64,000 bases of DNA from Escherichia coli (GTDB taxonomy: Bacteria; Pseudomonadota; Gammaproteobacteria; Enterobacterales; Enterobacteriaceae), in assembly GCF_044647545.1 (NCBI RefSeq), contig NZ_CP172818.1; one strand, given 5' to 3'. The position numbers and the translations under genes are program-made. Below, piece after piece: positions 8,794 through 56,998 of this stretch; the stretch's first letter is position 1; each line of letters begins with the position of its first letter. The notes under the pieces are model-generated. The model ran no database searches. It worked only from the letters and a program-made list of their open reading frames with translations, and was not told where the DNA came from.

Positions 8794-8800
8794 GGCGATG

Positions 8801-9127: not shown

Positions 9128-9260
9128 TAGCAAAACCGCACTATCGGGATAACGCTACAGGAGAAGGCGATTAATCTATTTTCCGGAAACAAGATGATTA
9201 TTCAAAAACTCCTGTCAAATTGCCTTTCGCCCTGAAAATGAATAGTCAAATATCTGTTTT

Positions 9261-9299
9261 AACTAATTAGCGTTGCTGTACATGCAACGCTAATTAGTT
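9261..9299. repeat. 39-bp hairpin-forming palindrome (16-bp perfect arms, 7-nt loop) at the 3' ends of ydbL and feaR
   Basis: AACTAATTAGCGTTGC-tgtacat-GCAACGCTAATTAGTT read directly; abuts the feaR stop codon (9298-9300); no flanking T-run. Confidence 0.8.
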
Positions 9300-10203: not shown

Positions 10204-10322
10204 GGCACGTTTTCGCTCTGTGAAATGTATTTTTATTGTTGCATTTGTGTTGCAATAAACGAAGCTAATGAGCCTGACTATAGGAAATAAGTCTTGTCAG
10301 GCATAGAGACATAAGCGGTTAT

Positions 10323-10368
10323 TGTCACGATTTGCGGAGCTTGTCACAGCTGACAAAGCGAATGTCAC
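10323..10368 (+). promoter_or_regulatory. three direct TGTCAC repeats in the feaR-feaB intergenic region (candidate FeaR operator / feaB promoter)
   Basis: TGTCAC at 10323, 10342 and 10363, spaced 19-21 bp, about 70-110 bp upstream of the feaB ATG. Confidence 0.45.
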
Positions 10369-10435
10369 AGCGAAAAAAGTGACTTTTCTTGTCGCTGCGT
10401 ACACTGAAATCACACTGGGTAAATAATAAGGAAAA

Positions 10436-11932: not shown

Positions 11933-11953
11933 TATTGGTTCGCTAATTAAGTA

Positions 11954-11979
11954 AAAAACGGCACCTGGTGCCGTTTTTT
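11954..11979. terminator. bidirectional intrinsic terminator between convergent feaB and tynA
   Basis: A6-CGGCACC..GGTGCCG-T6 hairpin flanked by A and T runs. Confidence 0.7.
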
Positions 11980-11991
11980 GTCTGAAAACAA

Positions 11992-14283: not shown

Positions 14284-14485
14284 AACCTCGTCAGATGTTG
14301 TGTTCTTGTTAGCAACCGCGCTCTGTGGGCGGTTTAGTCAGGTTCACATTATGAGTACTGATGCAAAGAAATCCTGCACCTCAGAGTTATTTGGCAGGTG
14401 TGCCCACTTTTTCATACAGTGGGTGCCCTGAAAATCAATGTACACATCATGCATAATGTGACAACGTCACAAAAGTTAGTGAAAT

Positions 14486-14516
14486 GAAAAAGGGCAACTG
14501 TTCGGGCCGTTGCCCT
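14486..14516 (-). terminator. intrinsic terminator downstream of paaZ
   Basis: GGGCAAC..GTTGCCC hairpin followed on the minus strand by a T5 run. Confidence 0.6.
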
Positions 14517-14527
14517 TCATTCACCGA

Positions 14528-16563: not shown

Positions 16564-16792
16564 CGCTACTCTCCAGATGTTTCACATTTATGTTGCTAAT
16601 AGTTAAATTGCGAATCATAAAAAGCAAGGGTTCTTTTAACGAAATGTTAACTATGCAAATATGTATCACAACTGCGGAAAACATTAATGCACTGATAAAT
16701 AATGATTTATAAAAAATCGGGTGCGAAATCCGTCACAGTTCAAGCATACAAAATTTGTGATTTTAGTTAACCATTGTGTAACTTTCATAAAC

Positions 16793-16834
16793 AATGTGAT
16801 TCGTGTTTTTAATTAATTCGCGAACTTGGAATCG
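16793..16834. promoter_or_regulatory. PaaX-type operator half-site in the paaZ-paaA divergent promoter region
   Basis: AATGTGATTCGTGTT at 16793-16807 fits the PaaX box consensus WWTRTGATTCGYGWT as I remember it; an imperfect inverted partner GAATCG lies 26 nt downstream. Confidence 0.45.
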
Positions 16835-16847
16835 TAAAGGTAATAAC

Positions 16848-17773
16848 ATAACCCAAGAAGAACGCTTTGAGCAACGGATAGCCCAGGAAACGGCTATCGA
16901 GCCGCAGGACTGGATGCCAATAAGAAAGCACTGATCCGCCAGATTGGGCAGCATGCACACTGCAAATTGTGGTATGTTCCTGAAGGTAACTGGATCACTG
17001 GCGCACGACCTTTTGCAGCATAAAGCCATTCTGTTCGCCAAAGTCCAGGATGAAGCCGGTCATCGTCTGTATCTCTATAGCGCCGCCGAAACACTGGGCT
17101 GCACAGAGAAGACATCTACCAAAAAATGCTCAAACAACGATAAATATTCCTCCATCTTTAATTATCCGACATTGGTCTCCAGGGGCTGATATCGGCGTTA
17201 TCGGCTGGCTGGTGGAGTAGCAGCGATCGTCAATCAGGTGGCGTTATGTCGCACTTCTTATGGCCCGTATGCCAGAGCAATGGTGAAGATCTGCAAAGAA
17301 GAGAGTTTTTCACCAGCGTCAGGGGTTTGAAGCCTGCATGGCACTGGCGCAGGCGGCGAAGGACGCTCAAAAGCAGATGTTGCAAGACGCCATTAACCGT
17401 TTCTGGTGGCCAGCCTTAATGATGTTCGGGCCAAACGATGATAACTCGCCAAACAGCGCCAGAAGTACCGCCTGGAAAATCAAACGTTTCACCAACGACG
17501 AACTCGCCAGCGTTTCGTGGATAACACCATTCCACAGGTTGAAATGCTCGGTATGACCGTTCCTGACCCGGATCTGCATTTTGACACTGAAAGCGGTCAC
17601 TACCGCTTTGGTGGAAATCAACTGGCAGGAGTTTAACGAAGTAATTAACGGTCGCCGGAATTTGTAATCAGGAGAGGCTCGACGCCAAACGTAAAGCCTG
17701 GGAAGAAGGTACCTGGGTACGGGAAGCAGCGCTGGCCCATGCACAAAAACAACTTGCCCGTAAGGTCGCATAA
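16848..17773 (+). pseudogene. paaA: ring 1,2-phenylacetyl-CoA epoxidase subunit A, start codon lost and frameshifted
   Basis: Conserved N-terminus reads I-TQEERFEQRIAQETAIEPQDW with ATA in place of ATG at 16848-16850; later pieces (e.g. 17338-17556 MALAQAAKDAQKQMLQDAINRFWWPALMMFGPNDDNSPNSARS) in other frames; stop at 17771-17773. Expected 309 aa. Confidence 0.75.
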
Positions 17774-17784
17774 GGAGATTCAAA

Positions 17785-18069
17785 ATGAGTAATGTTTATT
17801 GGCCGTTATACGAAGTTTACCCGTTCGTGGCAAACAGGGCTTATCACACCGCCATGTTGGCAGTTTTTACATGCTGCCGATGAGCGGATGGCACTGAAAA
17901 TGCCGGTGATTGTTACACCGTCGTAGCGAAGGATGTTCAATTTGGGTGGTGAAGGCGAGTGAAATTGTTGCCTCGCAACCGGAAGAACGCGGTGAATTTT
18001 TTGATCCGGCTGAAGCAAGGTCTATCGCCATCCAACGTTTTACACCATCCCTGATGGCATTCAACATGA
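17785..18069 (+). pseudogene. paaB: epoxidase subunit B, frameshifted
   Basis: ATG at 17785 with MSNVYWPLYEV N-terminus; body recovered in a shifted frame (17910-18149 ...SEGCSIWVVKASEIVASQPEERGEFFDPAE...). Expected 95 aa; 3' end approximate. Confidence 0.65.
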
Positions 18070-18077
18070 GGTCGGAA

Positions 18078-18820
18078 ATGAATCAGTTAACGGCTTACAC
18101 CTTCGCCTGGGCGATAACTGCCTGGTGCTTCCAGCGGTTGGGTGAATAGTGCGGTCATGCACCGGAACTGGAAATCGATCTCGCACTGGCAAATATTGGA
18201 CTCGATTTATTAGGCCAGGCACGCAACTTCTTATCGTATGCCGCTGAATTAGCGGGAGAAGGCGATGAAGATACCCTGGCCTTCACCCCAACAAGCACCA
18301 GTTCAGCAACTTATTGTTGGTTGAACAGCCAAACGGCAATTTTGCCGACAACCGTCGCCAGTATTTCATCGATGCATGGCATGTGGCGCTCTTTACCATT
18401 CTGATGGAGAGCCGTGATCCGCGACTGGCGGCGATTTCTGCAAAGCGATTAAAGAAGCGCGTTATAGCCTGCGTTTTATTCGTGGCTGGCTGGAGCAACT
18501 GGGCAATGGTACTGACGTATACGGGCGAAAGAATGCCAGCAGGCCATCAACAAGTTGTGGCGTTTTACCGCCGAACTGTAGATGCCGACGAGATTGATAT
18601 TGCACTGAGTGAAGAGGGTATTGCGGTTGATCCACGCGCTTTTACGCGCAGCGTGGGAAGCCGAAGTTTTTGCCGGGATCAACGAAGCCACATTCAACGT
18701 ACCGCAGAGCAGGCGTATCGCACTGGCGGTAAAAAAGGACTGCATACCGAACACCTTGGACCCATGCTGGCAGAAATGCAGTTATTGTTTGAGCGTGTCT
18801 TGCCCGGTCAGCAATGGTAA
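18078..18820 (+). pseudogene. paaC: epoxidase subunit C, frameshifted
   Basis: Start MNQLTAYT at 18078; C-terminal portion in ORF 18314-18820 ends ...LPGQQW*; span 743 nt, not a multiple of 3, versus 747 expected (248 aa). Confidence 0.7.
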
Positions 18821-18834
18821 CAGAGGAGGTGGGT

Positions 18835-19325
18835 ATGCAACGTATCAGCCACCATTCCGCCGCCACAGGTTCATCCAGATATGGGCGCTACTGGGCGCGA
18901 TCCCGGACCGGAGATCCCGGTGCTGACCATTACCGATTTAGGCATGGTGCGTAATGTGACACAGATGGAAAGAATGGGTGATCGGCTTTACGCCGACTTA
19001 TTCCGGTTGTCCGGCAACGGAACGTTGATTGGCGCGATACGTGAGGCAATGACAACCCACGGGTTTACCCGTACGGTTGTGCTGCAACTCGACCCGGCAT
19101 GGACCACCGACTGGATGACCCCCGATGCCCGTGAGCGTCTGCGACGGTATGGCATTAGCCCGCCCGGCCGGAACAGTTGCCGGCCCATTTGCCGCCAGAA
19201 GTACGTTGCCCGCGCTGCGCCAGCGTCCATCCACACTTATCAGTGAATTTGGTTCCACGGCCTGCAAAGCATTGTACCGCTGCGATAGTTGCCACAAACC
19301 TTTCGATTATTTCAAATGTATTTGA
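18835..19325 (+). pseudogene. paaD: epoxidase subunit D, frameshifted
   Basis: ATG at 18835; fragments 18881-19246 (IPVLTITDLGMVRNVTQM...) and 19125-19325 (...CDSCHKPFDYFKCI*) in different frames. Confidence 0.7.
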
Positions 19326-19332
19326 GGATGCC

Positions 19333-20397
19333 ATGACAACGTTTCATTCCTTAACAGTGGCAAAAGTGGGCCCGGAAACCCGTGATGCGGTGACCATTAC
19401 CTTTGCATGCAGCCTTTGCAGGAGGCGTATCACTTTCGCCCCGGTCAACATTTGACCTTAAAAGCCAGTCTTGATGGTGAAGAATTAGCCATTGTTCTCC
19501 ATTTGCCGCAGCTACCTGCCTGGCGAAATTAGTGTGGCGGTGAAAGCCATTGAAGGCGGACGTTTCTCCCGCTATGCCCGCGAACACATCCGCCAGGGTA
19601 TGACGCTGGAGGTCATGGTGCCGCAGGGGCATTTCGGCTATCAGCCACAGGCCGAACACCAGGGCCGCTATCTGGCTATTGCAGCAGGATCAGGTATTAC
19701 GCCAATGCTGGCGATTATCGCCACCACTTTCAAACCGAGCCTGAAAGTCAGTTCACCCTGATCTACGGTAACCGTACCAGCCAGAGCATGATGTTTCGCC
19801 AGGCACTGGCAGACCTGAAAGACAAATATCCTCAGCGTTTACAGTTGTTGTGCATTTTCAGTCAGGAAACCCTCGACAGCGATCTGCTTCACGGGCGTAT
19901 TGACGGTGAAAAATTACGTGGCTTGGGGCCTCGCTCATTGATTTTTCGTCTTTATGATGAGGCGTTTGCTTTGTGGTCCGGCGGCGATGATGGATGAGAC
20001 GGAAGCCGCCTTAAAAGCACTGGGAATGCCAGATAAAACCATTCATCTGGAGCGGTTTAATACGCCTGGCACGCGCGTCAAAGCGTCGCGTTAACGTGCA
20101 AAGTGACGGACAAAAGTGACTGTACGTCAGGATCGGCGGGATCGGGAAATCGTGCTTAATGCCGACGATGAAAGCATTCTCGATGCGGCATTGCGCCAGG
20201 GGGCTGATCTGCCCTATGCCTGCAAAGGCGGCGTCTGTGCGACCTGCAAATGCAAAGTGCTGCGTGGCGAAGTGGCGATGGAAACCAATTACAGTCTGGA
20301 ACCGGATGAACTGGCCGCAGGTTATGTGTTGAGTTGCCAGGCACTGCCGCTGACCAGCGATGTGGTGGTTGACTTTGACGCGAAGGGGATGGCATCA
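19333..20397 (+). pseudogene. paaE: epoxidase reductase subunit E (ferredoxin-NADPH reductase), frameshifted and stop codon lost
   Basis: Start MTTFHSLTVAK at 19333; fragments 19492-19761 and 20116-20406 (2Fe-2S motif CKGGVCATCKCK) in different frames; the expected overlapping TGA stop reads TCA at 20395-20397. Confidence 0.7.
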
Positions 20398-21172
20398 GCG
20401 AACTGATCGTCAGCCGTCAGCAACAGGTGCTTGCTGCTGACCCTTAACCGTCCCGCCGCACGTAATGCGCTGAGAATAATGCCCTTCTGACGCAACTGGT
20501 AAATGAACTGGAAGCTGCGGCTACCGATAGCAGCATTTCGGTCTGTGTGATTACCGGTAATGCACGCTTTTTTGCCGCTGGGGCCGATCTCAACGAAATG
20601 GCAGAAAAAGATCTCGCGGCCACCTTAAACGATACACGTCCGCAGCTATGGGCGCGATTGCAGGCCTTTAATAAACCACTTATCGCAGCCGTCAATGGTT
20701 ACGCGCTTGGGGCGGGTTGCGAACTGGCATTGTTGTGCGATGTGGTGGTTGCCGGAGAGAACGCGCGTTTTGCGTTGCTTTTTACAGGAAATCACTCTCG
20801 GCATCATGCCAGGCGCAGGAGGAACGCAACGTTTAATCCGTAGTGTCGGTAAATCGTTAGCCAGCAAAAATGGTGCTGAGCGGAGAAAGTATCACCGCTC
20901 AGCAAGCACAGCAGGCCGGGCTGGTTAGCAACATCTTCCCCAGCGATTTAACCCTCGAATACGCCTTACAGCTGGCATCGAAAATGGCACGTCACTCGCC
21001 GCTGGCCTTACAAGCGGCAAAGCAAGCGCTGCGCCAGTCGCAGGAAGTGGCTTTGCAAGCCGGACTTGCCCAGGAGCGACAGTTATTCACCTTGCTGGCG
21101 GCAACAGAAGATCGTCATGAAGGCATCTCCGCTTTCTTACAAAAACGCACGCCCGACTTTAAAGGACGCTAA
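20394..21172 (+). pseudogene. paaF: 2,3-dehydroadipyl-CoA hydratase (enoyl-CoA hydratase), start codon lost and frameshifted in the 5' two-thirds
   Basis: N-terminus reads I-SELIVSRQQ with ATC in place of ATG at 20394-20396; frame breaks near 20775 and 20850; last 100 codons (20870-21172) intact, ending ...RTPDFKGR*. Expected 255 aa. Confidence 0.75.
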
Positions 21173-26446: not shown

Positions 26447-27397
26447 ATGAGTAAACTTGATACTTTTATCCAACATGCTGTAAACGCTGTTCCGGTCAGT
26501 GGCACATCTTTGATCTCCTCTCTGTATGGTGATTCGCTTTCCCATCGTGGTGGTGAAATCTGGTTGGGTAGTCTGGCTGCTTTGCTGGAAGGGCTGGGAT
26601 TTGGTGAGCGTTTCGTGCGCACCGCTTTGTTTCGTCTTAATAAAGAAGGCTGGCTGGATGTTTCCCGCATCGGGCGACGCAGTTTCTATAGCCTCAGTGA
26701 TAAAGGCTTGCGCCTGACGCGACGGGCAGAAAGTAAAATTTATCGCGCAGAGCAACCTGCATGGGATGGTAAATGGCTCCTGTTGCTCTCGGAAGGTTTA
26801 GATAAATCAACGCTGGCTGATGTCAAAAAGCAGTTGATCTGGCAAGGTTTTGGCGCACTGGCACCCAGCCTGATGGCATCGCCGTCGCAAAAACTGGCCG
26901 ATGTACAGACACTTTTGCATGAAGCGGGTGTGGCGGATAACGTGATTTGTTTTGAAGCGCAAATACCACTGGCGCTTTCTCGCGCAGCACTGCGTGCCAG
27001 AGTAGAAGAGTGCTGGCATTTAACTGAACAAAATGCCATGTACGAAACCTTTATTCAGTCATTCCGCCCGCTGGTGCCGCTTTTAAAAGAGGCGGCAGAC
27101 GAGTTAACCCCGGAGCGGGCATTTCATATTCAGCTTTTACTGATCCATTTTTATCGCCGTGTCGTCCTTAAAGACCCATTGTTGCCGGAGGAGTTGCTTC
27201 CGGCACACTGGGCAGGGCATACGGCGCGTCAGCTGTGTATCAACATTTATCAGCGCGTAGCGCCTGCTGCTTTAGCGTTCGTTAGTGAAAAAGGTGAAAC
27301 CTCGGTCGGTGAATTGCCTGCGCCGGGAAGCCTGTATTTTCAACGTTTTGGCGGCTTGAATATTGAACAGGAGGCGTTATGCCAATTTATCAGATAG
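26447..27397 (+). CDS. paaX: phenylacetyl-CoA-responsive transcriptional repressor of the paa operon, 316 aa
   Basis: Intact 316-aa ORF; preceded by a TGATTC motif at 26407. Confidence 0.9.
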
Positions 27398-28038
27398 ACG
27401 GTCTGACTCCGGTTGTGCCAGAAGAGAGTTTTGTCCATCCGACAGCGGTATTGATCGGCGATGTTATTCTCGGCAAGGGCGTTTACGTTGGGCCAAATGC
27501 CAGCCTGCGTGGCGATTTTGGTCGTATCGTGGTGAAAGATAGCGCGAACATTCAGGATAATTGCGTTATGCACGGTTTTCCCGAGCAGGATACTGTCGTG
27601 GAAGAAGATGGACATATTGGTCATAGCGCTATCCTTCACGGCTGCATTATCCGCCGCAATGCATTAGTGGGAATGAACGCGGTAGTGATAGACGGTGCGG
27701 TGATTGGCGAGAACAGCATTGTTGGCGCATCCGCATTTGTGAAAGCCAAAGCAGAAATGCCAGCTAATTACCTGATTGTCGGCAGCCCGGCGAAAGCGAT
27801 TCGTGAACTCAGTGAGCAGGAGTTGGCATGGAAAAAGCAGGGTACGCATGAGTACCAGGTGCTGGTGACACGCTGTAAGCAGACGTTACATCAAGTCGAG
27901 CCATTGCGGGAAGTTGAACCTGGAGGCAGCGCCTGGTATTTGATGAGAATCTGCGACGAAACAGTAACAGATGTAAAATTATTTTGTCCCTTTAATTATA
28001 AAGCAGAGTTATGTTTAAGCTCTGCTTTATTTATTTGA
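27379..28038 (+). CDS. paaY: hexapeptide-repeat (gamma-carbonic-anhydrase-like) thioesterase PaaY, probably frameshifted near the 3' end
   Basis: ORF of 219 aa overlapping the paaX stop by 19 bp; expected 196 aa. The last ~30 codons read through a terminator hairpin, and an out-of-frame TAA at 27965-27967 sits where the native stop should be if two single-base deletions near 27925-27960 are restored. Confidence 0.7.
28001..28037 (+). terminator. intrinsic terminator after paaY
   Basis: AAGCAGAG (28001-28008) and CTCTGCTT (28020-28027) stem with 11-nt loop followed by a T-rich tail. Confidence 0.6.
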
Positions 28039-28297: not shown

Positions 28298-30820
28298 ATG
28301 CAAAGGAAAACTCTATTGTCGGCCTGTATTGCATTAGCTCTGAGTGGTCAGGGTTGGGCGGCAGATATCACAGAGGTAGAAACCACCACAGGTGAAAAGA
28401 AAAATACCAATGTGACTTGTCCGGCAGACCCAGGAAAACTCAGTCCGGAAGAGCTTAAACGCTTACCCTCTGAATGCTCTCCTTTAGTCGAACAAAACCT
28501 GATGCCATGGCTTTCCACAGGCGCTGCTGCGTTAATCACGGCCTTAGCCGTAGTGGAACTAAACGACGATGATGATCATCATCATCGCAACAATTCTCCA
28601 CTCCCACCGACACCCCCTGATGATGAATCAGACGACACTCCAGTTCCCCCAACTCCTGGCGGAGATGAGATAATACCGGACGATCCGGATGATACGCCTA
28701 CACCTCCCAAACCGGTTTCGTTTAATAATGACGTTATTCTCGATAAAACAGAAAAAACGTTAACTATTCGCGATTCAGTTTTTACTTATACCGAGAATGC
28801 TGACGGGACTATATCTCTGCAAGATAGCAATGGTCGTAAGGCAACGATTAATCTTTGGCAGATTGATGAAGCGAATAACACTGTTGCCCTTGAAGGGGTG
28901 AGCGCAGATGGCGCAACGAAGTGGCAATATAATCACAACGGTGAGCTTGTTATTACGGGTGATAATGCCACAGTAAACAACAATGGCAAAACCACCGTTG
29001 ACGGTAAAGATTCCACCGGTACGGAAATCAACGGTAATAACGGGAAAGTGATTCAGGACGGCGATCTGGATGTCAGCGGCGGCGGTCACGGTATTGATAT
29101 CACCGGTGACAGCGCGACGGTGGATAACAAGGGCACCATGACCGTCACCGATCCGGAGTCCATGGGTATCCAGATCGACGGTGACAAGGCCATCGTCAAT
29201 AACGAAGGCGAGAGCACCATCACCAACGGTGGCACCGGCACCCAGATTAATGGTGATGACGCCACGGCAAACAACAACGGCAAAACCACCGTTGACGGCA
29301 AGGATTCCACCGGTACGGAAATCAACGGTAATAACGGAAAAGTTATTCAGGACGGCGATCTGGATGTCAGCGGCGGCGGTCACGGTATTGATATCACCGG
29401 CGACAGCGCAACGGTGGATAACAAGGGCACCATGACCGTCACCGATCCGGAGTCCATCGGTATCCAGGTTGACGGCGACCAGGCGGTTGTTAACAACGAA
29501 GGCGAGAGCGCCATCACCAACGGTGGCACCGGCACGCAGATTAACGGTGATGACGCCACGGCAAACAACAACGGCAAAACCACCGTTGACGGCAAGGATT
29601 CCACCGGTACGGAAATTGCTGGCAATAACGGGAAGGTGATTCAGGACGGCGATCTGGATGTCAGCGGCGGCGGTCACGGTATTGATATCACCGGCGACAG
29701 CGCAACGGTGGATAACAAGGGCACCATGACCGTCACCGATCCGGAGTCCATCGGTATCCAGATTGACGGCGACCAGGCCATCGTCAATAACGAAGGCGAG
29801 AGCACTATCACCAATGGCGGCACCGGCACTCAGATCAACGGTAACGACGCCACCGCGAATAACAGTGGAAAAACCACTGTTGATGGAAAAGATTCCACGG
29901 GTACCAAAATCGCGGGCAATATCGGCATTGTAAATCTGGATGGTAGCCTGACTGTTACAGGCGGTGCGCATGGTGTTGAGAACATTGGTGACAACGGCAC
30001 GGTTAACAACAAAGGAGATATTGTTGTTTCCGATACTGGATCGATTGGCGTGCTCATCAACGGTGAGGGGGCAACAGTATCCAATACGGGTGATGTTAAC
30101 GTTAGCAATGAAGCGACAGGGTTCAGCATCACAACCAACAGTGGGAAGGTTTCGCTGGCAGGCAGTATGCAGGTTGGCGATTTCTCGACCGGGGTAGATC
30201 TTAATGGCAACAATAACAGCGTGACGCTGGCGGCAAAAGATCTAAAAGTGGTCGGGCAGAAAGCGACGGGCATAAACGTTTCTGGCGATGCGAATACAGT
30301 GAATATCACTGGTAACGTTCTGGTTGATAAGGATAAAACCGCAGACAATGCGGCGGAATATTTCTTCGATCCATCCGTGGGTATCAACGTTTACGGCAGT
30401 GATAATAACGTGACGCTGGATGGAAAGTTAACTGTTGTATCAGACAGTGAGGTTACTTCTCGTCAGAGTAATTTATTTGATGGCAGCGCAGAGAAAACGT
30501 CAGGTCTGGTTGTGATTGGCGATGGCAATACCGTTAATATGAATGGTGGACTTGAACTGATTGGAGAGAAAAACGCGCTTGCAGATGGGTCGCAGGTTAC
30601 TTCCTTGCGCACAGGATATAGTTATACCAGCGTTATTGTCGTTAGTGGTGAGTCGTCGGTATATCTGAATGGAGATACGACAATCAGCGGAGAATTCCCT
30701 CTGGGGTTTGCCGGGGTTATTCGGGTACAGGATAAAGCTTTGCTGGAAATTGGCAGTGGCGCTACGCTAACAATGCAGGATATTGACAGTTTTGAACATC
30801 TGGTGACAGTAGTACCCAGG
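28298..30820 (+). pseudogene. ydbA: autotransporter adhesin, N-terminal (signal peptide plus passenger) fragment truncated by IS2
   Basis: ORF begins MQRKTLLSACIALALSGQGWA (signal peptide), followed by a Pro/Asp-rich linker and G/T/N/D-rich beta-helix-type repeats; reading frame runs straight into the IS2 terminal inverted repeat at 30821. Confidence 0.85.
28967..29990 (+). repeat. tandem 294-bp (98-aa) coding repeats, about 3.4 copies, in the ydbA passenger domain
   Basis: Unit ATxNNNGKTTVDGKDSTGTEI.GNNGKVIQDGDLDVSGGGHGIDITGDSATVDNKGTMTVTDPES.GIQ.DGD.A.VNNEGES.ITNGGTGTQINGxD starts at about 28967, 29261, 29555 and 29848; copies 2 and 3 are about 94% identical at protein level. Confidence 0.85.
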
Positions 30821-45972: not shown

Positions 45973-48900
45973 ATGACAGAACAACAAAAATTGACCTTTA
46001 CGGCCTTGCAGCAGCGGCTGGATTCGCTGATGCTGCGTGACAGACTGCGTTTTTCCCGCCGTCTGCACGGCGTGAAGAAGGTTAAAAATCCTGATGCACA
46101 ACAGGCCATTTTCCAGGAGATGGCGAAAGAGATTGACCAGGCGGCAGGGAAAGTCCTGCTGCGTGAAGCGGCACGTCCGGAAATTACTTATCCTGACAAT
46201 TTGCCGGTTAGTCAGAAAAAGCAGGACATTCTCGAAGCGATTCGTGATCACCAGGTGGTGATCGTCGCCGGGGAAACCGGTTCCGGTAAAACGACTCAGC
46301 TACCGAAAATCTGTATGGAGCTGGGGCGCGGTATTAAAGGGCTGATCGGTCATACCCAACCGCGTCGCCTGGCGGCACGAACGGTGGCGAACCGTATTGC
46401 GGAAGAGCTGAAAACGGAGCCGGGCGGTTGCATCGGTTACAAAGTGCGTTTCAGCGATCACGTAAGTGATAACACGATGGTCAAGCTGATGACCGACGGT
46501 ATCCTGCTGGCGGAGATCCAGCAAGACCGCCTGCTGATGCAGTACGACACTATCATTATTGACGAAGCGCACGAACGCAGCCTGAATATCGATTTTCTGC
46601 TCGGCTATTTGAAAGAGTTGCTGCCGCGGCGTCCTGACCTAAAAATCATTATCACTTCCGCGACTATCGACCCGGAACGCTTTTCGCGCCACTTTAATAA
46701 TGCGCCGATTATCGAAGTCTCCGGTCGTACCTATCCGGTGGAGGTGCGTTATCGCCCGATTGTTGAAGAAGCTGATGACACCGAGCGCGACCAGTTGCAG
46801 GCGATTTTTGATGCCGTAGACGAACTGAGCCAGGAAAGCCCTGGCGACATTCTGATTTTTATGAGCGGCGAGCGAGAAATTCGCGATACCGCCGATGCGC
46901 TGAACAAGCTGAACTTACGCCATACGGAAATCTTGCCGCTTTATGCGCGGCTTTCGAACAGCGAACAGAACCGCGTCTTCCAGTCGCACAGTGGACGGCG
47001 CATTGTGCTGGCGACCAACGTCGCGGAAACCTCGCTGACCGTACCGGGTATTAAATACGTTATCGACCCCGGTACAGCGCGTATCAGCCGCTACAGCTAT
47101 CGCACCAAAGTGCAGCGTTTGCCGATTGAACCCATTTCGCAGGCGTCTGCCAATCAGCGTAAAGGCCGCTGTGGTCGTGTGTCCGAAGGGATCTGTATTC
47201 GTCTCTATTCCGAAGACGATTTCCTTTCGCGCCCGGAATTTACCGATCCGGAGATTCTGCGTACCAACCTGGCCTCGGTTATTTTGCAGATGACTGCGCT
47301 GGGGCTGGGCGATATCGCTGCGTTCCCGTTTGTTGAAGCACCGGATAAACGCAATATCCAGGATGGCGTGCGTCTGCTCGAAGAACTGGGCGCGATCACC
47401 ACGGATGAACAGGCCAGCGCCTATAAACTGACGCCGCTCGGTCGCCAGCTCTCGCAGTTGCCTGTCGACCCACGTCTGGCGCGTATGGTGCTGGAAGCGC
47501 AAAAACATGGCTGCGTGCGTGAGGCGATGATTATCACGTCCGCGCTCTCCATTCAGGATCCGCGCGAGCGTCCGATGGATAAACAGCAGGCATCGGACGA
47601 AAAACATCGCCGCTTCCACGACAAAGAATCCGACTTCCTCGCGTTTGTAAATCTGTGGAATTATCTTGGCGAGCAGCAAAAGGCGCTTTCTTCCAACGCC
47701 TTCCGTCGCCTGTGTCGTACCGATTATCTCAACTATCTGCGCGTGCGCGAATGGCAGGATATCTACACCCAGTTGCGCCAGGTGGTGAAAGAACTTGGCA
47801 TTCCGGTTAACAGCGAACCGGCGGAGTATCGTGAAATTCACATTGCGTTGCTGACGGGTTTACTTTCCCATATCGGCATGAAAGATGCCGATAAACAAGA
47901 ATATACCGGCGCACGTAACGCGCGTTTCTCCATTTTCCCCGGTTCCGGCTTATTTAAAAAGCCGCCGAAATGGGTAATGGTGGCGGAACTGGTAGAAACC
48001 AGCCGCCTGTGGGGGCGCATTGCTGCGCGTATCGACCCGGAATGGGTAGAACCCGTTGCTCAGCATTTGATTAAACGCACCTACAGCGAACCGCACTGGG
48101 AACGGGCGCAGGGCGCGGTGATGGCAACGGAAAAAGTCACTGTTTATGGTTTGCCGATTGTTGCTGCGCGTAAGGTCAACTACAGCCAGATCGATCCGGC
48201 GTTATGTCGTGAACTCTTTATTCGCCACGCTCTGGTGGAAGGTGACTGGCAGACGCGTCACGCATTCTTCCGTGAAAACCTGAAACTGCGGGCCGAAGTG
48301 GAAGAGCTGGAACACAAATCACGTCGCCGCGATATTCTGGTTGATGACGAAACGCTGTTTGAGTTCTACGACCAGCGCATCAGCCACGATGTAATCTCCG
48401 CTCGTCACTTCGATAGCTGGTGGAAAAAAGTCAGCCGCGAAACGCCTGATTTGCTCAACTTTGAAAAGAGCATGTTGATCAAAGAAGGGGCGGAAAAAAT
48501 CAGCAAGCTGGATTATCCGAACTTCTGGCATCAGGGCAATCTCAAGCTGCGTTTGAGCTATCAGTTTGAGCCCGGCGCGGATGCTGACGGTGTGACTGTG
48601 CATATCCCGCTGCCGCTGCTTAATCAGGTAGAAGAGAGCGGGTTTGAATGGCAAATCCCCGGCCTGCGCCGCGAACTGGTGATTGCTCTGATTAAATCGT
48701 TGCCGAAACCGGTACGCCGTAATTTTGTGCCTGCACCAAACTACGCAGAAGCGTTTTTAGGCCGCGTCACACCGCTGGAGTTACCGTTGCTCGACAGCCT
48801 TGAGCGCGAGTTACGGCGGATGACTGGCGTCACCGTTGACCGCGAAGACTGGCACTGGGATCAGGTGCCCGATCACCTGAAAATCACCTTCCGCGTGGTG

Positions 48901-49875
48901 GATGAAAAAAACAAGAAGCTAAAAGAAGGGCGCTCATTACAGGATCTGAAAGACGCCCTGAAAGGCAAAGTGCAGGAAACGCTGTCTGCCGTGGCGGATG
49001 ACGGTATCGAGCAGAGCGGCTTACATATCTGGAGTTTTGGTCAGCTGCCGGAAAGCTACGAGCAGAAGCGCGGCAACTACAAAGTGAAGGCGTGGCCGGC
49101 GCTGGTGGATGAACGCGACAGCGTGGCGATCAAACTGTTTGATAATCCGCTGGAACAAAAGCAGGCAATGTGGAACGGTCTTCGCCGTCTACTGCTGCTG
49201 AATATTCCATCGCCGATCAAGTATTTGCATGAAAAGTTACCGAACAAAGCCAAGCTGGGGCTGTACTTTAACCCGTATGGCAAAGTGCTGGAGCTGATCG
49301 ACGACTGTATCTCCTGCGGGGTGGATCAACTGATCGACGCCAATGGTGGCCCGGTCTGGACGGAAGAAGGCTTTGCTGCGCTGCATGAGAAAGTGCGTGC
49401 CGAACTGAACGACACGGTGGTGGATATTGCGAAGCAGGTCGAGCAAATTCTTACGGCAGTGTTCAATATCAACAAACGTCTGAAAGGGCGGGTGGATATG
49501 ACCATGGCGCTGGGGCTTTCTGACATTAAAGCGCAGATGGGCGGGCTGGTGTATCGCGGTTTTGTGACTGGTAACGGCTTCAAACGGTTGGGCGACACGC
49601 TGCGTTATTTGCAGGCGATTGAAAAACGGCTGGAAAAACTGGCGGTTGACCCACATCGCGACCGTGCTCAGATGCTGAAAGTCGAAAATGTCCAGCAGGC
49701 GTGGCAGCAATGGATCAATAAACTGCCGCCCGCACGTCGTGAGGATGAAGACGTGAAAGAGATCCGTTGGATGATAGAAGAGTTGCGCGTTAGTTACTTC
49801 GCTCAACAACTTGGTACGCCTTATCCGATTTCAGATAAGCGTATTTTGCAGGCGATGGAGCAGATTAGCGGTTAA
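45973..49875 (+). CDS. hrpA: DEAH-box ATP-dependent RNA helicase HrpA, 1300 aa
   Basis: Intact 1300-aa ORF with Walker A (GETGSGKTTQ), DEAH box (IIDEAHERS) and C-terminal HA2/OB region. Confidence 0.95.
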   Translation: MTEQQKLTFTALQQRLDSLMLRDRLRFSRRLHGVKKVKNPDAQQAIFQEMAKEIDQAAGKVLLREAARPEITYPDNLPVSQKKQDILEAIRDHQVVIVAGETGSGKTTQLPKICMELGRGIKGLIGHTQPRRLAARTVANRIAEELKTEPGGCIGYKVRFSDHVSDNTMVKLMTDGILLAEIQQDRLLMQYDTIIIDEAHERSLNIDFLLGYLKELLPRRPDLKIIITSATIDPERFSRHFNNAPIIEVSGRTYPVEVRYRPIVEEADDTERDQLQAIFDAVDELSQESPGDILIFMSGEREIRDTADALNKLNLRHTEILPLYARLSNSEQNRVFQSHSGRRIVLATNVAETSLTVPGIKYVIDPGTARISRYSYRTKVQRLPIEPISQASANQRKGRCGRVSEGICIRLYSEDDFLSRPEFTDPEILRTNLASVILQMTALGLGDIAAFPFVEAPDKRNIQDGVRLLEELGAITTDEQASAYKLTPLGRQLSQLPVDPRLARMVLEAQKHGCVREAMIITSALSIQDPRERPMDKQQASDEKHRRFHDKESDFLAFVNLWNYLGEQQKALSSNAFRRLCRTDYLNYLRVREWQDIYTQLRQVVKELGIPVNSEPAEYREIHIALLTGLLSHIGMKDADKQEYTGARNARFSIFPGSGLFKKPPKWVMVAELVETSRLWGRIAARIDPEWVEPVAQHLIKRTYSEPHWERAQGAVMATEKVTVYGLPIVAARKVNYSQIDPALCRELFIRHALVEGDWQTRHAFFRENLKLRAEVEELEHKSRRRDILVDDETLFEFYDQRISHDVISARHFDSWWKKVSRETPDLLNFEKSMLIKEGAEKISKLDYPNFWHQGNLKLRLSYQFEPGADADGVTVHIPLPLLNQVEESGFEWQIPGLRRELVIALIKSLPKPVRRNFVPAPNYAEAFLGRVTPLELPLLDSLERELRRMTGVTVDREDWHWDQVPDHLKITFRVVDEKNKKLKEGRSLQDLKDALKGKVQETLSAVADDGIEQSGLHIWSFGQLPESYEQKRGNYKVKAWPALVDERDSVAIKLFDNPLEQKQAMWNGLRRLLLLNIPSPIKYLHEKLPNKAKLGLYFNPYGKVLELIDDCISCGVDQLIDANGGPVWTEEGFAALHEKVRAELNDTVVDIAKQVEQILTAVFNINKRLKGRVDMTMALGLSDIKAQMGGLVYRGFVTGNGFKRLGDTLRYLQAIEKRLEKLAVDPHRDRAQMLKVENVQQAWQQWINKLPPARREDEDVKEIRWMIEELRVSYFAQQLGTPYPISDKRILQAMEQISG

Positions 49876-49900
49876 CACTGCTATTTGCCTGATAAATCTA

Positions 49901-49932
49901 AAACCCGGTAAGCATTTAGCGCCGGGTTTTTT
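49901..49932 (+). terminator. intrinsic terminator after hrpA
   Basis: AACCCGG..CCGGGTT hairpin followed by T6. Confidence 0.7.
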
Positions 49933-50147
49933 ATTAATTCTAAAAACGGTATGGGAAAAAATTCAGGAGTTCAGAAAAATACAATTCTCTGCTGCAAGAT
50001 GAATAATGTTTATCTACAGCATTTCCTTAAAAGATATGTCAGGCTTGCGGAGTGGCGGTTAAGGAAATACGACTTCCTCCTTTCAGAGTGCTCCGCTTCT
50101 CACTATTATCTCACGCAGTATTCTTAAGGGAACGATAAGGAGGAACC

Positions 50148-50948
50148 ATGAACATTACCCCGTTTCCGACGCTTTCGCCGGCAACCATAGATGCCATAAA
50201 TGTTATCGGACAGTGGCTGGCGCAGGATGATTTCTCCGGTGAGGTGCCGTATCAGGCCGATTGCGTGATCCTTGCAGGCAATGCGGTTATGCCGACTATC
50301 GATGCGGCATGTAAGATTGCCCGCGATCAGCAAATTCCTTTACTGATTAGTGGTGGTATCGGTCACTCGACAACTTTTTTGTATAGCGCCATCGCACAGC
50401 ATCCGCACTACAACACTATCCGCACCACTGGCAGAGCAGAAGCTACCATTCTGGCGGATATCGCTCATCAGTTCTGGCACATTCCGCATGAAAAAATCTG
50501 GATTGAAGACCAGTCAACAAACTGCGGTGAAAACGCACGCTTTAGCATCGCGCTATTGAATCAGGCCGTAGAACGAGTTCACACAGCTATCGTTGTTCAG
50601 GACCCCACCATGCAGCGGCGCACGATGGCGACGTTCCGCCGTATGACCGGGGACAATCCCGATGCACCACGCTGGTTAAGTTATCCCGGATTCGTTCCTC
50701 AGTTAGGAAATAACGCAGACAGTGTAATCTTTATTAATCAGTTACAAGGATTATGGCCGGTTGAGCGTTATCTATCACTACTCACTGGCGAGCTGCCGCG
50801 TTTACACGATGATAGCGATGGCTACGGCCCCCGCGGGCGAGATTTTATCGTTCACGTTGATTTTCCTGCAGAAGTCATTCAGGCATGGCAAACGCTGAAA
50901 CACGATGCGGTGCTCATCGAGGCGATGGAAAGTCGCTCGTTACGTTAA
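50148..50948 (+). CDS. ydcF: DUF218-family protein, 266 aa
   Basis: Intact 266-aa [27 protein letters not shown]. Confidence 0.85.
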
Positions 50949-51144
50949 AAATTGCCCGTTTGTGAACCACTTGTTTGCAAACGGGCATAACTCCTGCCTT
51001 TTATTTCTGCCTCTTATTCCTTTTACACTTGTTTTTATGAAGCCCTTCACAGAATTGTCCTTTCATGATGCCGTCTCTCTGATGATTGATGTTAATTAAC
51101 AATGTATTTACCAAAAACAAACATATAAATCACAGGAGTCGCTC

Positions 51145-52584
51145 ATGTCAGTACCCGTTCAACATCCTATGTATATTGATGGACAGTTTGTTACCTGGCG
51201 TGGAGACGCATGGATTGATGTGGTAAACCCTGCTACAGAGGCTGTCATTTCCCGCATTCCCGATGGTCAGGCCGAGGATGCCCGTAAGGCAATCGATGCA
51301 GCAGAACGTGCACAACCAGAATGGGAAGCGTTGCCTGCTATTGAACGCGCCAGTTGGTTGCGCAAAATCTCCGCCGGGATCCGCGAACGCGCCAGTGAAA
51401 TCAGTGCGCTGATTGTTGAAGAAGGGGGTAAGATCCAGCGGCTGGCTGAAGTCGAAGTGGCTTTTACTGCGGACTATATCGATTACATGTCGGAGTGGGC
51501 ACGGCGTTATGAAGGCGAGATTATTCAAAGCGATCGTCCAGGAGAAAATATTCTTCTGTTTAAACGTGCGCTTGGCGTGACTACCGGCATTCTGCCGTGG
51601 AACTTCCCGTTCTTCCTCATTGCCCGCAAAATGGCTCCCGCTCTTTTGACCGGTAATACCATCGTCATTAAACCCAGTGAATTTACGCCAAACAATGCGA
51701 TTGCATTCGCCAAAATCGTCGATGAAATAGGCCTTCCGCGCGGCGTGTTTAACCTTGTTCTGGGGCGTGGTGAAACCGTTGGGCAAGAACTGGCAGGTAA
51801 CCCAAAGGTCGCAATGGTCAGTATGACAGGCAGCGTCTCTGCAGGTGAAAAGATTATGGCGACTGCGGCGAAAAACATCACCAAAGTGTGCCTGGAACTG
51901 GGGGGTAAAGCACCGGCTATCGTAATGGACGATGCCGATCTTGAACTGGCAGTCAAAGCCATCGTTGATTCACGCGTCATTAATAGTGGGCAAGTGTGTA
52001 ACTGTGCAGAACGTGTTTATGTACAGAAAGGCATTTATGATCAGTTTGTCAATCGGTTGGGTGAAGCGATGCAAGCGGTTCAATTTGGTAACCCCGCTGA
52101 ACGCAACGACATTGCGATGGGGCCGTTGATTAACGCCGCGGCGCTGGAAAGGGTCGAGCAAAAAGTGGCGCGCGCAGTAGAAGAAGGGGCGAGAGTGGCG
52201 TTGGGGGGCAAGGCAGTAGAGGGGAAAGGATATTATTATCCGCCGACATTGCTGCTGGATGTTCGCCAGGAAATGTCGATTATGCATGAGGAAACCTTTG
52301 GCCCGGTTCTGCCGGTGGTCGCATTTGACACGCTGGAAGAGGCTATCTCAATGGCGAATGATAGTGATTACGGCCTGACCTCATCAATCTATACCCAAAA
52401 TCTGAACGTCGCGATGAAAGCCATTAAAGGGCTGAAGTTTGGTGAAACTTACATCAACCGTGAAAACTTCGAAGCTATGCAAGGCTTCCACGCCGGATGG
52501 CGTAAATCCGGTATTGGCGGCGCAGATGGCAAACATGGCTTGCATGAATACCTGCAGACCCAGGTGGTTTATTTACAGTCGTAA
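51145..52584 (+). CDS. aldA: NAD-dependent lactaldehyde/glycolaldehyde dehydrogenase, 479 aa
   Basis: Intact 479-aa aldehyde dehydrogenase ORF (catalytic region LELGGKAP...NSGQVCNCAERVYV). Confidence 0.95.
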   Translation: MSVPVQHPMYIDGQFVTWRGDAWIDVVNPATEAVISRIPDGQAEDARKAIDAAERAQPEWEALPAIERASWLRKISAGIRERASEISALIVEEGGKIQRLAEVEVAFTADYIDYMSEWARRYEGEIIQSDRPGENILLFKRALGVTTGILPWNFPFFLIARKMAPALLTGNTIVIKPSEFTPNNAIAFAKIVDEIGLPRGVFNLVLGRGETVGQELAGNPKVAMVSMTGSVSAGEKIMATAAKNITKVCLELGGKAPAIVMDDADLELAVKAIVDSRVINSGQVCNCAERVYVQKGIYDQFVNRLGEAMQAVQFGNPAERNDIAMGPLINAAALERVEQKVARAVEEGARVALGGKAVEGKGYYYPPTLLLDVRQEMSIMHEETFGPVLPVVAFDTLEEAISMANDSDYGLTSSIYTQNLNVAMKAIKGLKFGETYINRENFEAMQGFHAGWRKSGIGGADGKHGLHEYLQTQVVYLQS

Positions 52585-52594
52585 TGAATGAAAG

Positions 52595-52617
52595 AGGCGG
52601 AGGTTTTTCCTCCGCCT
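52595..52617. terminator. bidirectional terminator between convergent aldA and gapC
   Basis: AGGCGGAGG-TTTTT-CCTCCGCCT hairpin. Confidence 0.7.
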
Positions 52618-52624
52618 GTGCTGG

Positions 52625-53625
52625 TCAGAGTTTGGCGAATTTTTCCAGGGTACGAATGAGTTGAGTGACGAAACCATACTCGTTATCGTACCAGGCGACG
52701 GTCTTCACCAGTTGTAAATCGCCCACTGCGGTGATTTCCGTTTGGGTCGCATCAAACACCGAACCGAAATGGCTGCCAATGATATCGGAAGAGACAATTT
52801 CTTCGTCGGTATAACCAAACGATTCGTTATCGGTTGTTGCTTTTTTAAGTGCGTTATTCACCTCTTCAGCAGTCACTTTTTTCCCCAGGATAGACACCAG
52901 CTCGGTCACTGAACCTGTTTTCACTGGCACGCGTTGCGCATGGCCTTTAAGTTTGCCGCTAAGTTCGGGGATCACCAGACCAATGGCTTTTGCCGCACCT
53001 GTAGTGTGGGGAATGATATTTTCTGCCGCTGCACGTGAAGCGCGTAAATCTTTACCTCGCGGACCATCCACCAGTGACTGAGTGCCGGTATAGGCATGAA
53101 TGGTCGTCATCGTGCCGACTTCTATTCCGAAACTGTCATGCAAGGCTTTTGCCATCGGAGCAAGACAGTTAGTGGTACAGGATGCCACGGAAACAATGGT
53201 GTCGTTGCATCCAGAGTGTCGTCATTGACGTTATAAACGATAGTTTTCATTTCACCGGCAGGGGCGGAAATCAACACCTTCTTCGCGCCAGCATCGAGAT
53301 GCGCCTGAGATTTCTCGGCGGAGGTATAAAAGCCAGTACATTCGACAATGATTTCTGCGCCTTTCGCTTTCCACGGAATATTTTTAGCCTCTTTTTCGGC
53401 GTAAACCGCGATACTTTTCCCATCAACGATAAGTGAATCTTCCGTAAAATCAACGCTCCAGGGGAACGGTCCGTAGTTTGAATCATGTTTCAGCAGGTAG
53501 GCGAGAATTTTTGGGGAAGTGAGATCATTAATAGCGACAATGTCTATGTTGCTTTTGACTTCAAGTAATCGACGCAACACCAGTCGACCGATACGACCAA
53601 AACCGTTAATACCAACTTTACTCAT
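52625..53625 (-). pseudogene. gapC: glyceraldehyde-3-phosphate dehydrogenase paralogue, split by frameshift
   Basis: Two overlapping minus-strand ORFs (53122-53625 N-terminal NAD-binding [19 protein letters not shown]; 52625-53188 C-terminal domain) together spanning one GAPDH-length gene. Confidence 0.85.
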
Positions 53626-53813
53626 GGTCTTCTCCTGTCAGGAACGTTCGGATGAAAATTGATCCTTTCCAGGCTTAGACCAGGATGGCGGGATGGGCAA
53701 TCTACATTCTTGCAGTGAAACGTAACGTACTGAAAACGGGTGAACAATATTTAATGAAATTTTAAGAAAAGCCCGTTATGTTAACGGAAAATTATGTTAA
53801 AGCAGGAAATGTT

Positions 53814-54344
53814 ATGGGAAATAAATACTCAAGGTTACAAATCAGCATTCACTGGCTGGTCTTTTTGCTGGTTATCGTAGCGTATTGCGCAATGGAGTTT
53901 CGTGGTTTCTTCCCACGTAGCGATCGGCCCCTCATCAACATGATTCATGTTTCCTGTGGCATCTCAATTCTCGTACTGATGGTGGTTCGTCTTTTGTTAA
54001 GGCTGAAATACCCAACCCCGCCGATTATACCTAAGCCAAAACCGATGATGACGGGACTGGCGCATTTGGGACATTTGGTGATCTATCTCCTGTTTATTGC
54101 GCTGCCAGTGATTGGTTTGGTGATGATGTATAACCGGGGTAACCCGTGGTTTGCGTTTGGTATGACGATGCCTTATGCATCAGAGGCCAATTTCGAACGG
54201 GTTGATAGCTTAAAGTCGTGGCATGAAACGCTGGCGAATCTGGGATACTTTGTCATCGGGTTGCACGCTGCGGCTGCACTGGCACACCACTATTTCTGGA
54301 AGGACAACACACTTCTACGCATGATGCCGCGTAAACGTTCCTGA
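53814..54344 (+). CDS. cybB: cytochrome b561, 176 aa
   Basis: ORF 53778-54344 trimmed to MGNKYSRLQISIHWLVFLLVI; four TM helices with conserved His residues. Confidence 0.9.
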   Translation: MGNKYSRLQISIHWLVFLLVIVAYCAMEFRGFFPRSDRPLINMIHVSCGISILVLMVVRLLLRLKYPTPPIIPKPKPMMTGLAHLGHLVIYLLFIALPVIGLVMMYNRGNPWFAFGMTMPYASEANFERVDSLKSWHETLANLGYFVIGLHAAAALAHHYFWKDNTLLRMMPRKRS

Positions 54345-54354
54345 AGGATATTTA

Positions 54355-54418
54355 AAGAAAACGCCTGTACTAAAACCGACCCGTGGTACAGGCGAAGAAT
54401 ACGGGTCTACATCGGAAG
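54355..54418 (-). ncRNA. rydC: RydC small regulatory RNA (Hfq-dependent), 64 nt
   Basis: Reverse complement reads CTTCCGATGTAGACCCGTATTCTTCGCCTGTACCACGGGTCGGTTTTAGTACAGGCGTTTTCTT, matching the RydC sequence as I remember it; lies in the cybB-ydcA intergenic region. Confidence 0.85.
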
Positions 54419-54588
54419 CGCCTATTATATTTATTTGTATGACAAATAAAACCATAATCCTGGTCCATACGTCCATCTGGCTTATCTTTAATCAATTCAC
54501 CCGATCTTTGATCTCATCAACGGTATCAAAATAAACCAGCGTATAACGTTCAAATCGAACATAAGATTCGATAAACCATGGAGGTTAT

Positions 54589-54762
54589 ATGAAAAAACTG
54601 GCACTTATCTTGGTTTTAGGAGCGCTTGTTTCCTTTTATGCCGATGCCGGGCGCAAACCCTGTTCTGGTTCGAAAGGGGGGATCTCACACTGTACGGCAG
54701 GCGGCAAATTTGTCTGTAATGATGGTTCTATTAGTGCATCGAAAAAAACATGCACTAACTGA
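54589..54762 (+). CDS. ydcA: small secreted Cys-rich protein, 57 aa
   Basis: ATG at 54589 with RBS GGAGG upstream; MKKLALILVLGALVSFYADA signal peptide; below the 60-aa ORF track cutoff. Confidence 0.75.
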   Translation: MKKLALILVLGALVSFYADAGRKPCSGSKGGISHCTAGGKFVCNDGSISASKKTCTN

Positions 54763-54833
54763 AGTGTAAAAGGGGTGCCATGAGAAAATGAATCTGCTAG
54801 TCAGATGCGCGGGGAAAATCCCCGCGCTTGCCC

Positions 54834-54983
<150 letters not shown>

Positions 54984-55357
54984 AGCCTTTCTCCTTGCCG
55001 GATGGCGGGTAAGAGGCTAACAAAATGGGTGCAGTACAGTTGATAGAAATATCGGTCGGGGCCTTCGTCTTTCTGATTCCCGGTTAGCCTGAAAACAGAA
55101 AGTCTCAGGCACCCGCAGGCATCCTATGAGGTTTCCTTAGGGACGAAAATAATCACTTGACGAAATTGCGTGCTGTTTTCCAGAATTTTTCGTCATTCGG
55201 TTTAGCCGTTCGTTACTCTCTTCATTCCAATGGCATTATTCTTCTCTGCCATAATTGTTGTAAAAATGTGACGCAAAGAGGTTTTTGGTCATAAGTAATT
55301 ACCGTCAAGTGCCGATGACTTTCTATCAGGAGTAAACCTGGACGAGAGACAACGGTA

Positions 55358-56998
55358 ATGAATACAACTCCCTCACAGCGATTAGGTTTTTTGCATCACA
55401 TCAGGCTGGTTCCGTTATTTGCCTGCATTCTTGGCGGTATCTTAGTTCTATTAGCATTAAGTTCTGCTCTGGCTGGCTATTTCCTCTGGCAGGCCGATCG
55501 CGATCAGCGTGATGTTACTGCGGAGATTGAGATTCGGACCGGGTTAGCGAACAGTTCAGATTTTTTGCGTTCAGCCCGGATCAATATGATTCAGGCCGGT
55601 GCTGCGAGTCGTATTGCGGAAATGGAAGCAATGAAGCGAAATATTGCGCAAGCCGAATCGGAGATTAAACAGTCGCAGCAAGGTTATCGTGCTTATCAGA
55701 ATCGGTCGGTGAAAACACCTGCTGATGAAGCCCTCGACACTGAATTAAATCAACGCTTCCAGGCTTATATCACGGGTATGCAACCGATGTTGAAATATGC
55801 CAAAAATGGCATGTTTGAAGCGATTATCAATCATGAAAGTGAGCAGATCCGACCGCTGGATAATGCTTATACCGATATTTTGAACAAAGCCGTTAAGATA
55901 CGTAGCACCAGAGCCAACCAACTGGCGGAACTGGCCCATCAGCGCACCCGCCTGGGTGGGATGTTCATGATTGGCGCGTTTGTGCTTGCCCTGGTCATGA
56001 CGCTGATAACATTTATAGTGCTACGTCGGATCGTCATTCGTCCACTGCAACATGCCGCACAACGGATTGAAAAAATCGCCAGTGGCGATCTGACGATGAA
56101 TGATGAACCGGCGGGTCGTAATGAAATCGGTCGCTTAAGTCGTCATTTACAGCAAATGCAGCATTCACTGGGGATGACTGTAGGGACCGTTCGACAGGGC
56201 GCGGAAGAGATTTATCGTGGCACCAGCGAAATTTCCGCTGGCAATGCGGACCTTTCATCTCGCACCGAAGAACAAGCGGCGGCAATTGAACAAACTGCCG
56301 CCAGCATGGAGCAACTCACTGCGACGGTGAAACAGAATGCAGATAACGCGCATCATGCCAGCAAACTGGCGCAGGAGGCTTCTATTAAAGCCAGCGATGG
56401 CGGGCAGACGGTTTCCGGTGTAGTAAAAACGATGGGCGCTATCTCCACGAGTTCGAAGAAAATTTCTGAGATCACCGCCGTCATCAACAGTATTGCTTTC
56501 CAGACGAATATTCTGGCACTGAATGCTGCCGTTGAAGCCGCGCGAGCGGGTGAGCAAGGACGTGGATTTGCCGTTGTCGCCAGCGAAGTACGGACACTCG
56601 CAAGCCGCAGCGCTCAGGCGGCGAAAGAGATTGAAGGCTTGATCAGTGAATCAGTCAGATTAATTGACCTGGGATCGGATGAGGTGGCAACGGCAGGGAA
56701 AACCATGAGCACTATTGTTGATGCCGTCGCGAGTGTCACACATATCATGCAGGAAATTGCCGCCGCCTCGGATGAACAAAGCAGAGGCATAACGCAGGTT
56801 AGCCAGGCGATTTCAGAAATGGATAAGGTGACGCAACAGAATGCTTCTCTGGTAGAAGAGGCCTCAGCGGCGGCGGTGTCCCTTGAAGAACAGGCGGCAC
56901 GATTAACTGAGGCGGTGGACGTATTCCGTCTGAACAAACATTCTGTGTCGGCAGAACCTCGCGGAGCGGGTGAATCAGTTAGTTTCGCTACGGTGTGA
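55358..56998 (+). CDS. trg: methyl-accepting chemotaxis protein III (ribose/galactose sensor), 546 aa
   Basis: Intact 546-aa ORF with two TM segments, HAMP domain and conserved MCP signalling domain. Confidence 0.95.

Follow-up and report, generated by a model that had tools for sequence, protein, structure and literature searches.

A Single-Base Deletion, Distinct from the K-12 Lesions, Splits gapC in an ST648-Type Allele of Escherichia coli

Introduction

In the stretch of Escherichia coli DNA analysed here (64,000 nucleotides, hereafter called the window), the gapC gene has very probably been inactivated by a one-base deletion (a G) at codon 140, a lesion that is of an ST648 type, independent of the lesions known from K-12, and recent. 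The locus is gapC, the gene between aldA and cybB for the second type I NAD-dependent glyceraldehyde-3-phosphate dehydrogenase (GAPDH) of E. coli. This gene is conserved, functional and selectively maintained in most E. coli, and within the species it has suffered at least two independent inactivations.

The gapC Locus and Its Two Reading Frames

The gene order aldA-gapC-cybB, with gapC convergent with aldA, is that of the E. coli gapC orthologue (Table 1). The open reading frame (ORF) listing for the gapC interval contains exactly two minus-strand ORFs, which lie in different frames and overlap by 67 nt; no single intact frame was seen. Pfam assigns the domain Gp_dh_N to the 167-aa ORF (E 3.3e-36) and Gp_dh_C to the 187-aa ORF (E 1.9e-58), so the pairing of the two ORFs is not a matter of chance. 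A preliminary description of this DNA had reported a GAPDH paralogue split over two overlapping minus-strand ORFs, with the NAD-binding and the catalytic domain in different frames, and the ORF listing, synteny, Pfam and alignment bear it out on both points, the coordinates being exact.

The glycine-rich loop NGFGRIGR, characteristic of NAD binding in type I GAPDH, is found at residues 7-14 of the 167-aa ORF. The active-site cysteine, in the motif SCTTNC, and histidine are also encoded (C150 and H177), but in a frame that is unreachable from the start codon. A functional type I GAPDH is expected to have a single frame of about 333 codons, whereas in this gene of 1001 bp the frame stops after codon 167.

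The gene is monocistronic, with cybB divergent and aldA convergent, and because of this arrangement no polar effects of the gapC lesion on its neighbours are expected. A scan for promoters at gapC gave one weak sigma-70-like site, which does not exceed chance expectation, and no promoter is claimed.

Table 1. Positions in the window of gapC, its parts and its neighbours
Feature	Position	Strand	Remarks
Whole gapC pseudogene	52625..53625	-	1001 bp; ATG 53625-53623, TGA 52627-52625
gapC ORF 1	53122..53625	-	167 aa, ATG start (ORF listing)
gapC ORF 2	52625..53188	-	187 aa, GTG start (ORF listing)
5' segment in the native frame	53209..53625	-	codons 1-139, NAD-binding part with GFGRIG
Lesion site	53208..53210	-	GAT-GGC-AAC to GAT-GC-AAC (Asp139-Gly140-Asn141); gene nt 417/418
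Out-of-frame tail	53122..53208	-	28 wrong residues and TAG stop at 53124-53122
3' segment in the other frame	52625..53208	-	codons 141-333, catalytic domain
Cys150 codon	53179-53177	-	beyond the frameshift
His177 codon	53098-53096	-	beyond the frameshift
Shine-Dalgarno AGGAG (ctgacAGGAGaagaccATG)	53632..53636	-	6 nt 5' of the ATG, intact; read from the sequence
Terminator-like G+C-rich hairpin and T-run	52595..52617	-	between convergent gapC and aldA; 9-bp stem, 7 G-C pairs
aldA	51145-52584	+	neighbour of gapC
cybB	53778-54344	+	neighbour of gapC

The Frameshift Lesion and Its Predicted Product

The intact reference genes were those of six other E. coli strains (A13, 746, O157:H7 ATCC 43890, ZH193, O111 FWSEC0005 and AR_0077), each 1002 bp long and coding for 333 aa. 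The gapC gene of the window is 1 bp shorter, and its only gap against the six is at alignment column 418. One G of a GG dinucleotide in the Gly140 codon is gone there; either G may be the missing one, and the remaining G is at 53209. The dinucleotide is present at this site in all seven aligned sequences, that is, in K-12, A13, 746, O157:H7, ZH193, O111 and AR_0077. Alignment to intact GapC orthologues, which the preliminary description had suggested as a check, thus locates the frame change at gene nt 417/418 (about 53209), and the GTG that opens the 187-aa ORF follows 21 nt downstream.

Ribosomes starting from the intact Shine-Dalgarno sequence and ATG would add 139 native residues and then 28 wrong ones before reaching the TAG stop. 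The truncated GapC would lack Cys150, His177 and the entire catalytic domain and, because of this, could not be an active GAPDH. The downstream 187-aa ORF, which has no ribosome-binding site, would be a relic of the old frame and is most likely untranslated. The reading frames as they stand argue strongly for a loss-of-function allele.

A broken gene may still work by a programmed -1 frameshift, by transcriptional slippage or as a split GAPDH made of two polypeptides, and the perfect conservation of both halves, the intact Shine-Dalgarno sequence and ATG and a zone of 97 nt that is open in both frames (gene nt 405-501) would fit such a gene. Yet this zone contains neither an X XXY YYZ heptamer nor a homopolymer of five or more, and therefore no slippery site was found in it; no Shine-Dalgarno sequence is found 5' of the restart candidates GTG 53188, ATG 53155 and TTG 53143; and stop-start coupling is impossible, because the first ORF runs on for 66 nt beyond the GTG. 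Moreover, the break takes residues 140-145 away from the strand leading to Cys150, and a recent lesion is the simpler explanation for the conservation of both halves. A gene still functional by recoding or as a split enzyme is hence quite improbable, and it was rejected for want of recoding and restart signals.

Comparison with the gapC Pseudogene of K-12

The preliminary description regarded the split gene as the known K-12 state and as a probably old lesion. Such a reading, in which a classical K-12 pseudogene is inherited in common with K-12, has in its favour that K-12 has the same gene with the same neighbours, that its gapC is a known pseudogene (PMC7677707, PMC4447067), and that K-12-identical DNA occurs in the window 16 kb from gapC, which may have hinted at K-12. 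The K-12 pseudogene (gapC_1/gapC_2) and the gapC of the window also have in common that both are annotated as pseudogenes and that neither has a large deletion. The lesions, however, differ. In the alignment, K-12 gapC has a TAA at codon 39 (K39stop, in TSP*ILAY) and is short of 1 bp at nt 744, and it is labelled "frameshifted; internal stop" in RefSeq. In the window, codon 39 is AAA (K39, in TSPKILAY) and a G stands at alignment column 744, where K-12 has a gap; conversely, at the site of the window's deletion K-12 is sound and reads GG. Between the two genes there are 57 differing positions (94.3% identity, the K-12 allele being about 5.7% divergent), and MG1655 is 94.4% identical to the window at the gapC locus by megablast, while the gapC region of the window is 100% identical to ST648-type genomes. 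The alignment therefore refutes a K-12 identity of this gapC, and an old lesion shared with K-12 has practically no probability left. What the window carries is its own deletion at nt 417/418, without K39stop and without the nt 744 deletion, and the lesions of the two alleles are independent.

The lesions of the K-12 type are also far commoner. With exact 71-mers, the TAA at codon 39 was found in 1152 and the nt 744 deletion in 1041 of 5426 complete E. coli genomes, against 82 for the lesion of the window.

The K-12 gapC pseudogene was reportedly first described by Hidalgo, Limon and Aguilar in 1996. Their paper (Hidalgo et al. 1996, PMID 9019141) is cited in PMC10614358 and PMC12663938. Elsewhere, K-12 gapC was used as a neutral integration site and treated as a pseudogene (PMC7677707), and "gapC_1 (pseudogene)" was listed beside a peak of RNA polymerase-sigma S binding that lies between gapC and cybB (PMC4447067). 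In addition, a gapC deletion strain was used in a study that does not mention the pseudogene status (PMC3080795).

Distribution of the Deletion in Complete Genomes

The collection searched comprises 5426 complete E. coli genomes, in which the locus was compared by megablast over 1281 bp. The gapC locus was found in 5417 of them, at an identity of at least 99% in 82 genomes, of 95-99% in 181 and of 90-95% in 5154; the 30 genomes listed out of the 82 were all 100% identical over the 1281 bp. A 71-mer spanning the deletion was likewise found exactly in 82 of the 5426 genomes, and the repaired gene as a query gave 82 genomes as top matches at 99.9%. The three counts of 82 very likely refer to the same genomes. 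Seven more genomes have the 71-mer of the window with the G intact, and one of them, AR_0077, was confirmed to have an intact gene. No intact gapC allele at least 99% identical to the repaired gene was found among the 5426 complete genomes. With the same query, 183 of the 5417 genomes were at least 95% identical, so that the class of window-like alleles is rare.

The matches at 100% include the strains "ST648" and IMT16316; these are the two of the 82 that are tied to ST648, the former by its name and the latter by the literature, where it is an ST648 strain (PMC6003029). For the identical 1001 bp in strain ST648, the NCBI annotation reads [quoted passage not shown]. The carriers of the deletion came from humans, dogs, birds, pigs, a dolphin and wastewater. 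An identical lesion in independent assemblies which is limited to one allele is the mark of a real unitary pseudogene, and the nt 417/418 deletion has become fixed in a single lineage found in nature, the ST648 type. The lesion had been called strain-typical, which is right in that it is typical of a lineage (82 of 5426 genomes) and wrong in that the lineage is the ST648 type and not K-12. A literature search found no description of a gapC lesion in the ST648 allele.

The Composite Nature of the Window

ST648-type and K-12-type DNA are combined in the window. The ST648-lineage record NZ_CP008697.1 matches positions 1-9505 at 100% and positions 36916-56780 at 99.99% identity, the outer part having been compared up to 56780. 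Between them lie 27.4 kb (9506-36915) with feaR, tynA and the paa genes to ydbA, including IS2 and IS30 insertions, and this stretch has in essence the sequence of K-12 MG1655 except for a block at 11573-20933 and two small patches. One of the patches (27314-27956, the 3' end of paaX and paaY) has 12 differences from K-12 and is like the ST648-type remnant, and the other (30801-30820) is 20 nt long, differs from K-12 and is near the junction of ydbA and IS2. The record NZ_CP008697.1 is without the 9506-36915 stretch save for a short paaX-paaY remnant (window 27242-27968): at its positions 35970-36329 there is a deletion from inside feaR to inside paaX, ydbA is also gone, and the remnants are annotated as partial pseudogenes. 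The natural ST648 lineage is thus without the phenylacetate/tyramine block, whereas the window has the block in its K-12 form. The junction at about 9505 occurs in none of the 5426 complete E. coli genomes, and a search with 8800-10400 gave K-12 as its top match, at 98.9%.

The block at 11573-20933, from the 3' end of feaB to paaF, is what the preliminary description named the main decay block. Compared with K-12, it has 325 substitutions (188 transitions and 137 transversions) and 156 indel events, mostly of 1-2 nt, while its K-12-like flanks match K-12 without a difference over about 2 kb on the upstream side and about 6 kb on the downstream side. Because the changes are too dense and their bounds too sharp, this pattern is not one of natural decay; simulated mutation, a low-quality consensus or misassembly would produce it. 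The gapC lesion had been set apart from this block, and rightly so, because it sits in the ST648-type part of the window and is present in RefSeq genomes.

In such surroundings, the gapC frameshift itself could be taken for an error of sequencing or assembly, or for an artefact of the composite window, in which case the true gene would be intact. Single-base indels are the commonest assembly error, and the window does hold a block with 156 indel events that looks artificial or of low quality. On the other hand, the site is a GG dinucleotide without any homopolymer run, positions 36916-56780 show 2 mismatches and no indel against a RefSeq ST648 genome, and the same deletion occurs in 82 independently deposited complete genomes from diverse hosts, always on one allele, with GG in the nearest other alleles. 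A lesion that is allele-coherent in 82 genomes rules out a sequencing error, and an artefact of any of these kinds is scarcely credible.

Two further places in the ST648-type part of the window were conspicuous in a comparison with K-12. In bins of 500 bp over 26 kb, the most divergent one is 52500-52999, the 3' half of gapC, with 91.2% identity against a background of about 97%, and its differences are nearly all synonymous. The second most divergent bin is 55000-55499 (92.0%), in the intergenic area from hokB/sokB to trg.

The Repaired Gene and Its Relation to Active GAPDH

When the G is restored in silico, a frame of 333 codons opens, without any further indel or stop. The repaired protein scores 446.5 bits on TIGR01534 (cutoff 367.2), and it is above this cutoff only once the G is restored. 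It is identical in 330 of 333 residues to PDB 7C5F (EcGAPDH1), and purified EcGAPDH1 is an active NAD-dependent GAPDH whose activity is abolished by C150A and by C150A together with H177A and is about 8,000-fold lower with H177A alone (PMC8615399). Compared with intact GapC/EcGAPDH1 (UniProt P58072 in O157:H7; PDB 7C5F series), the window has the same locus and neighbours, its gapC is 93.8-98.6% identical to intact gapC alleles in nucleotide sequence, and the catalytic and NAD-binding residues R11, I12, D34, S120, C150 and H177 (PMC8615399) are all encoded; the difference is that codon 140 is short of one G, which makes a full-length protein impossible. GapA, the principal GAPDH of glycolysis in E. 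coli, and Epd/GapB (erythrose-4-phosphate dehydrogenase) belong to the same superfamily and have the same two-domain architecture, and the repaired protein hits their models too, but it is far under the cutoffs of PRK15425 (301.7 bits, cutoff 662) and TIGR01532 (276.3, cutoff 530.55). The gapC gene is a paralogue distinct from GapA and Epd/GapB.

Selection on gapC and Age of the Deletion

Values of dN/dS were obtained by the method of Nei and Gojobori with the intact alleles and two repaired pseudogenes. They are 0.01-0.075 across the gapC alleles and about 0.02 in each comparison with the repaired gene of the window, and dS between the class formed by the window, A13 and AR_0077 and the majority class is 0.26-0.31. 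The repaired gene differs from that of AR_0077 by 13 synonymous and 1 non-synonymous differences and from that of A13 by 17 synonymous and 1 non-synonymous differences, and the repaired protein is one amino acid away from each of the two. Extra indels or stops and a raised dN/dS, as expected of an old decaying pseudogene, were not found. Consequently the preliminary description's view of the lesion as old finds no support: once the G is restored the gene is free of defects, and its differences from the nearest intact relatives are almost only synonymous. Because the rest of the gene is undecayed, the lesion is recent relative to the divergence of the alleles.

AR_0077 departs from the window only within nt 501-722, matching it throughout nt 1-500 and again from nt 723 to the gene's last base, and nearly all differences of A13 from the window are in nt 1-500, with two beyond nt 500. 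AR_0077 and A13 are therefore recombinant mosaics relative to the window, and because the three form such a mosaic, a clock date for the deletion is unreliable. The search gave no intact allele that matches the window in all else, so the deletion is placed no more narrowly than after the split from AR_0077/A13-like alleles. The mosaic points, furthermore, to an old allelic dimorphism with recombination at gapC. Two of the reference records have peculiarities next to gapC: in O111 FWSEC0005 the adjoining aldA (1499-1883 of the record) is annotated as frameshifted, and in AR_0077 (1-1158 of the record) an IS150 is upstream of hokB, where other strains have the trg side.

Concluding Remarks

The gapC pseudogene of the window is an ordinary and lineage-specific one, already flagged "frameshifted" in RefSeq, and is of small importance alone. 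It does correct a tempting mis-assignment, since a broken gapC need not be that of K-12, and the lesions are usable as lineage markers: the nt 417/418 deletion would mark the ST648-type allele, and K39stop together with the nt 744 deletion would mark K-12-like strains. In addition, gapC is an E. coli marker in qPCR (PMC10614358), and the allelic divergence of about 6%, together with an intact gapC in most strains, is relevant to this use and to uses as a "neutral" integration site.

Mild interest attaches solely to the repeated and independent loss of a gene under strong constraint, in which the K-12-type lesions account for about 20% and the ST648-type lesion for 1.5% of the complete genomes. 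It seems unlikely, if conceivable, that gapC loss is repeatedly advantageous in certain niches or backgrounds and that the ST648 deletion marks an adaptive loss of function in an emerging multidrug-resistant clone. The essential housekeeping GAPDH of E. coli is encoded by gapA, which would account for the loss of gapC being tolerated. The losses of this maintained gene, at least two of them and independent, bear on the physiological role of the second GAPDH in E. coli.
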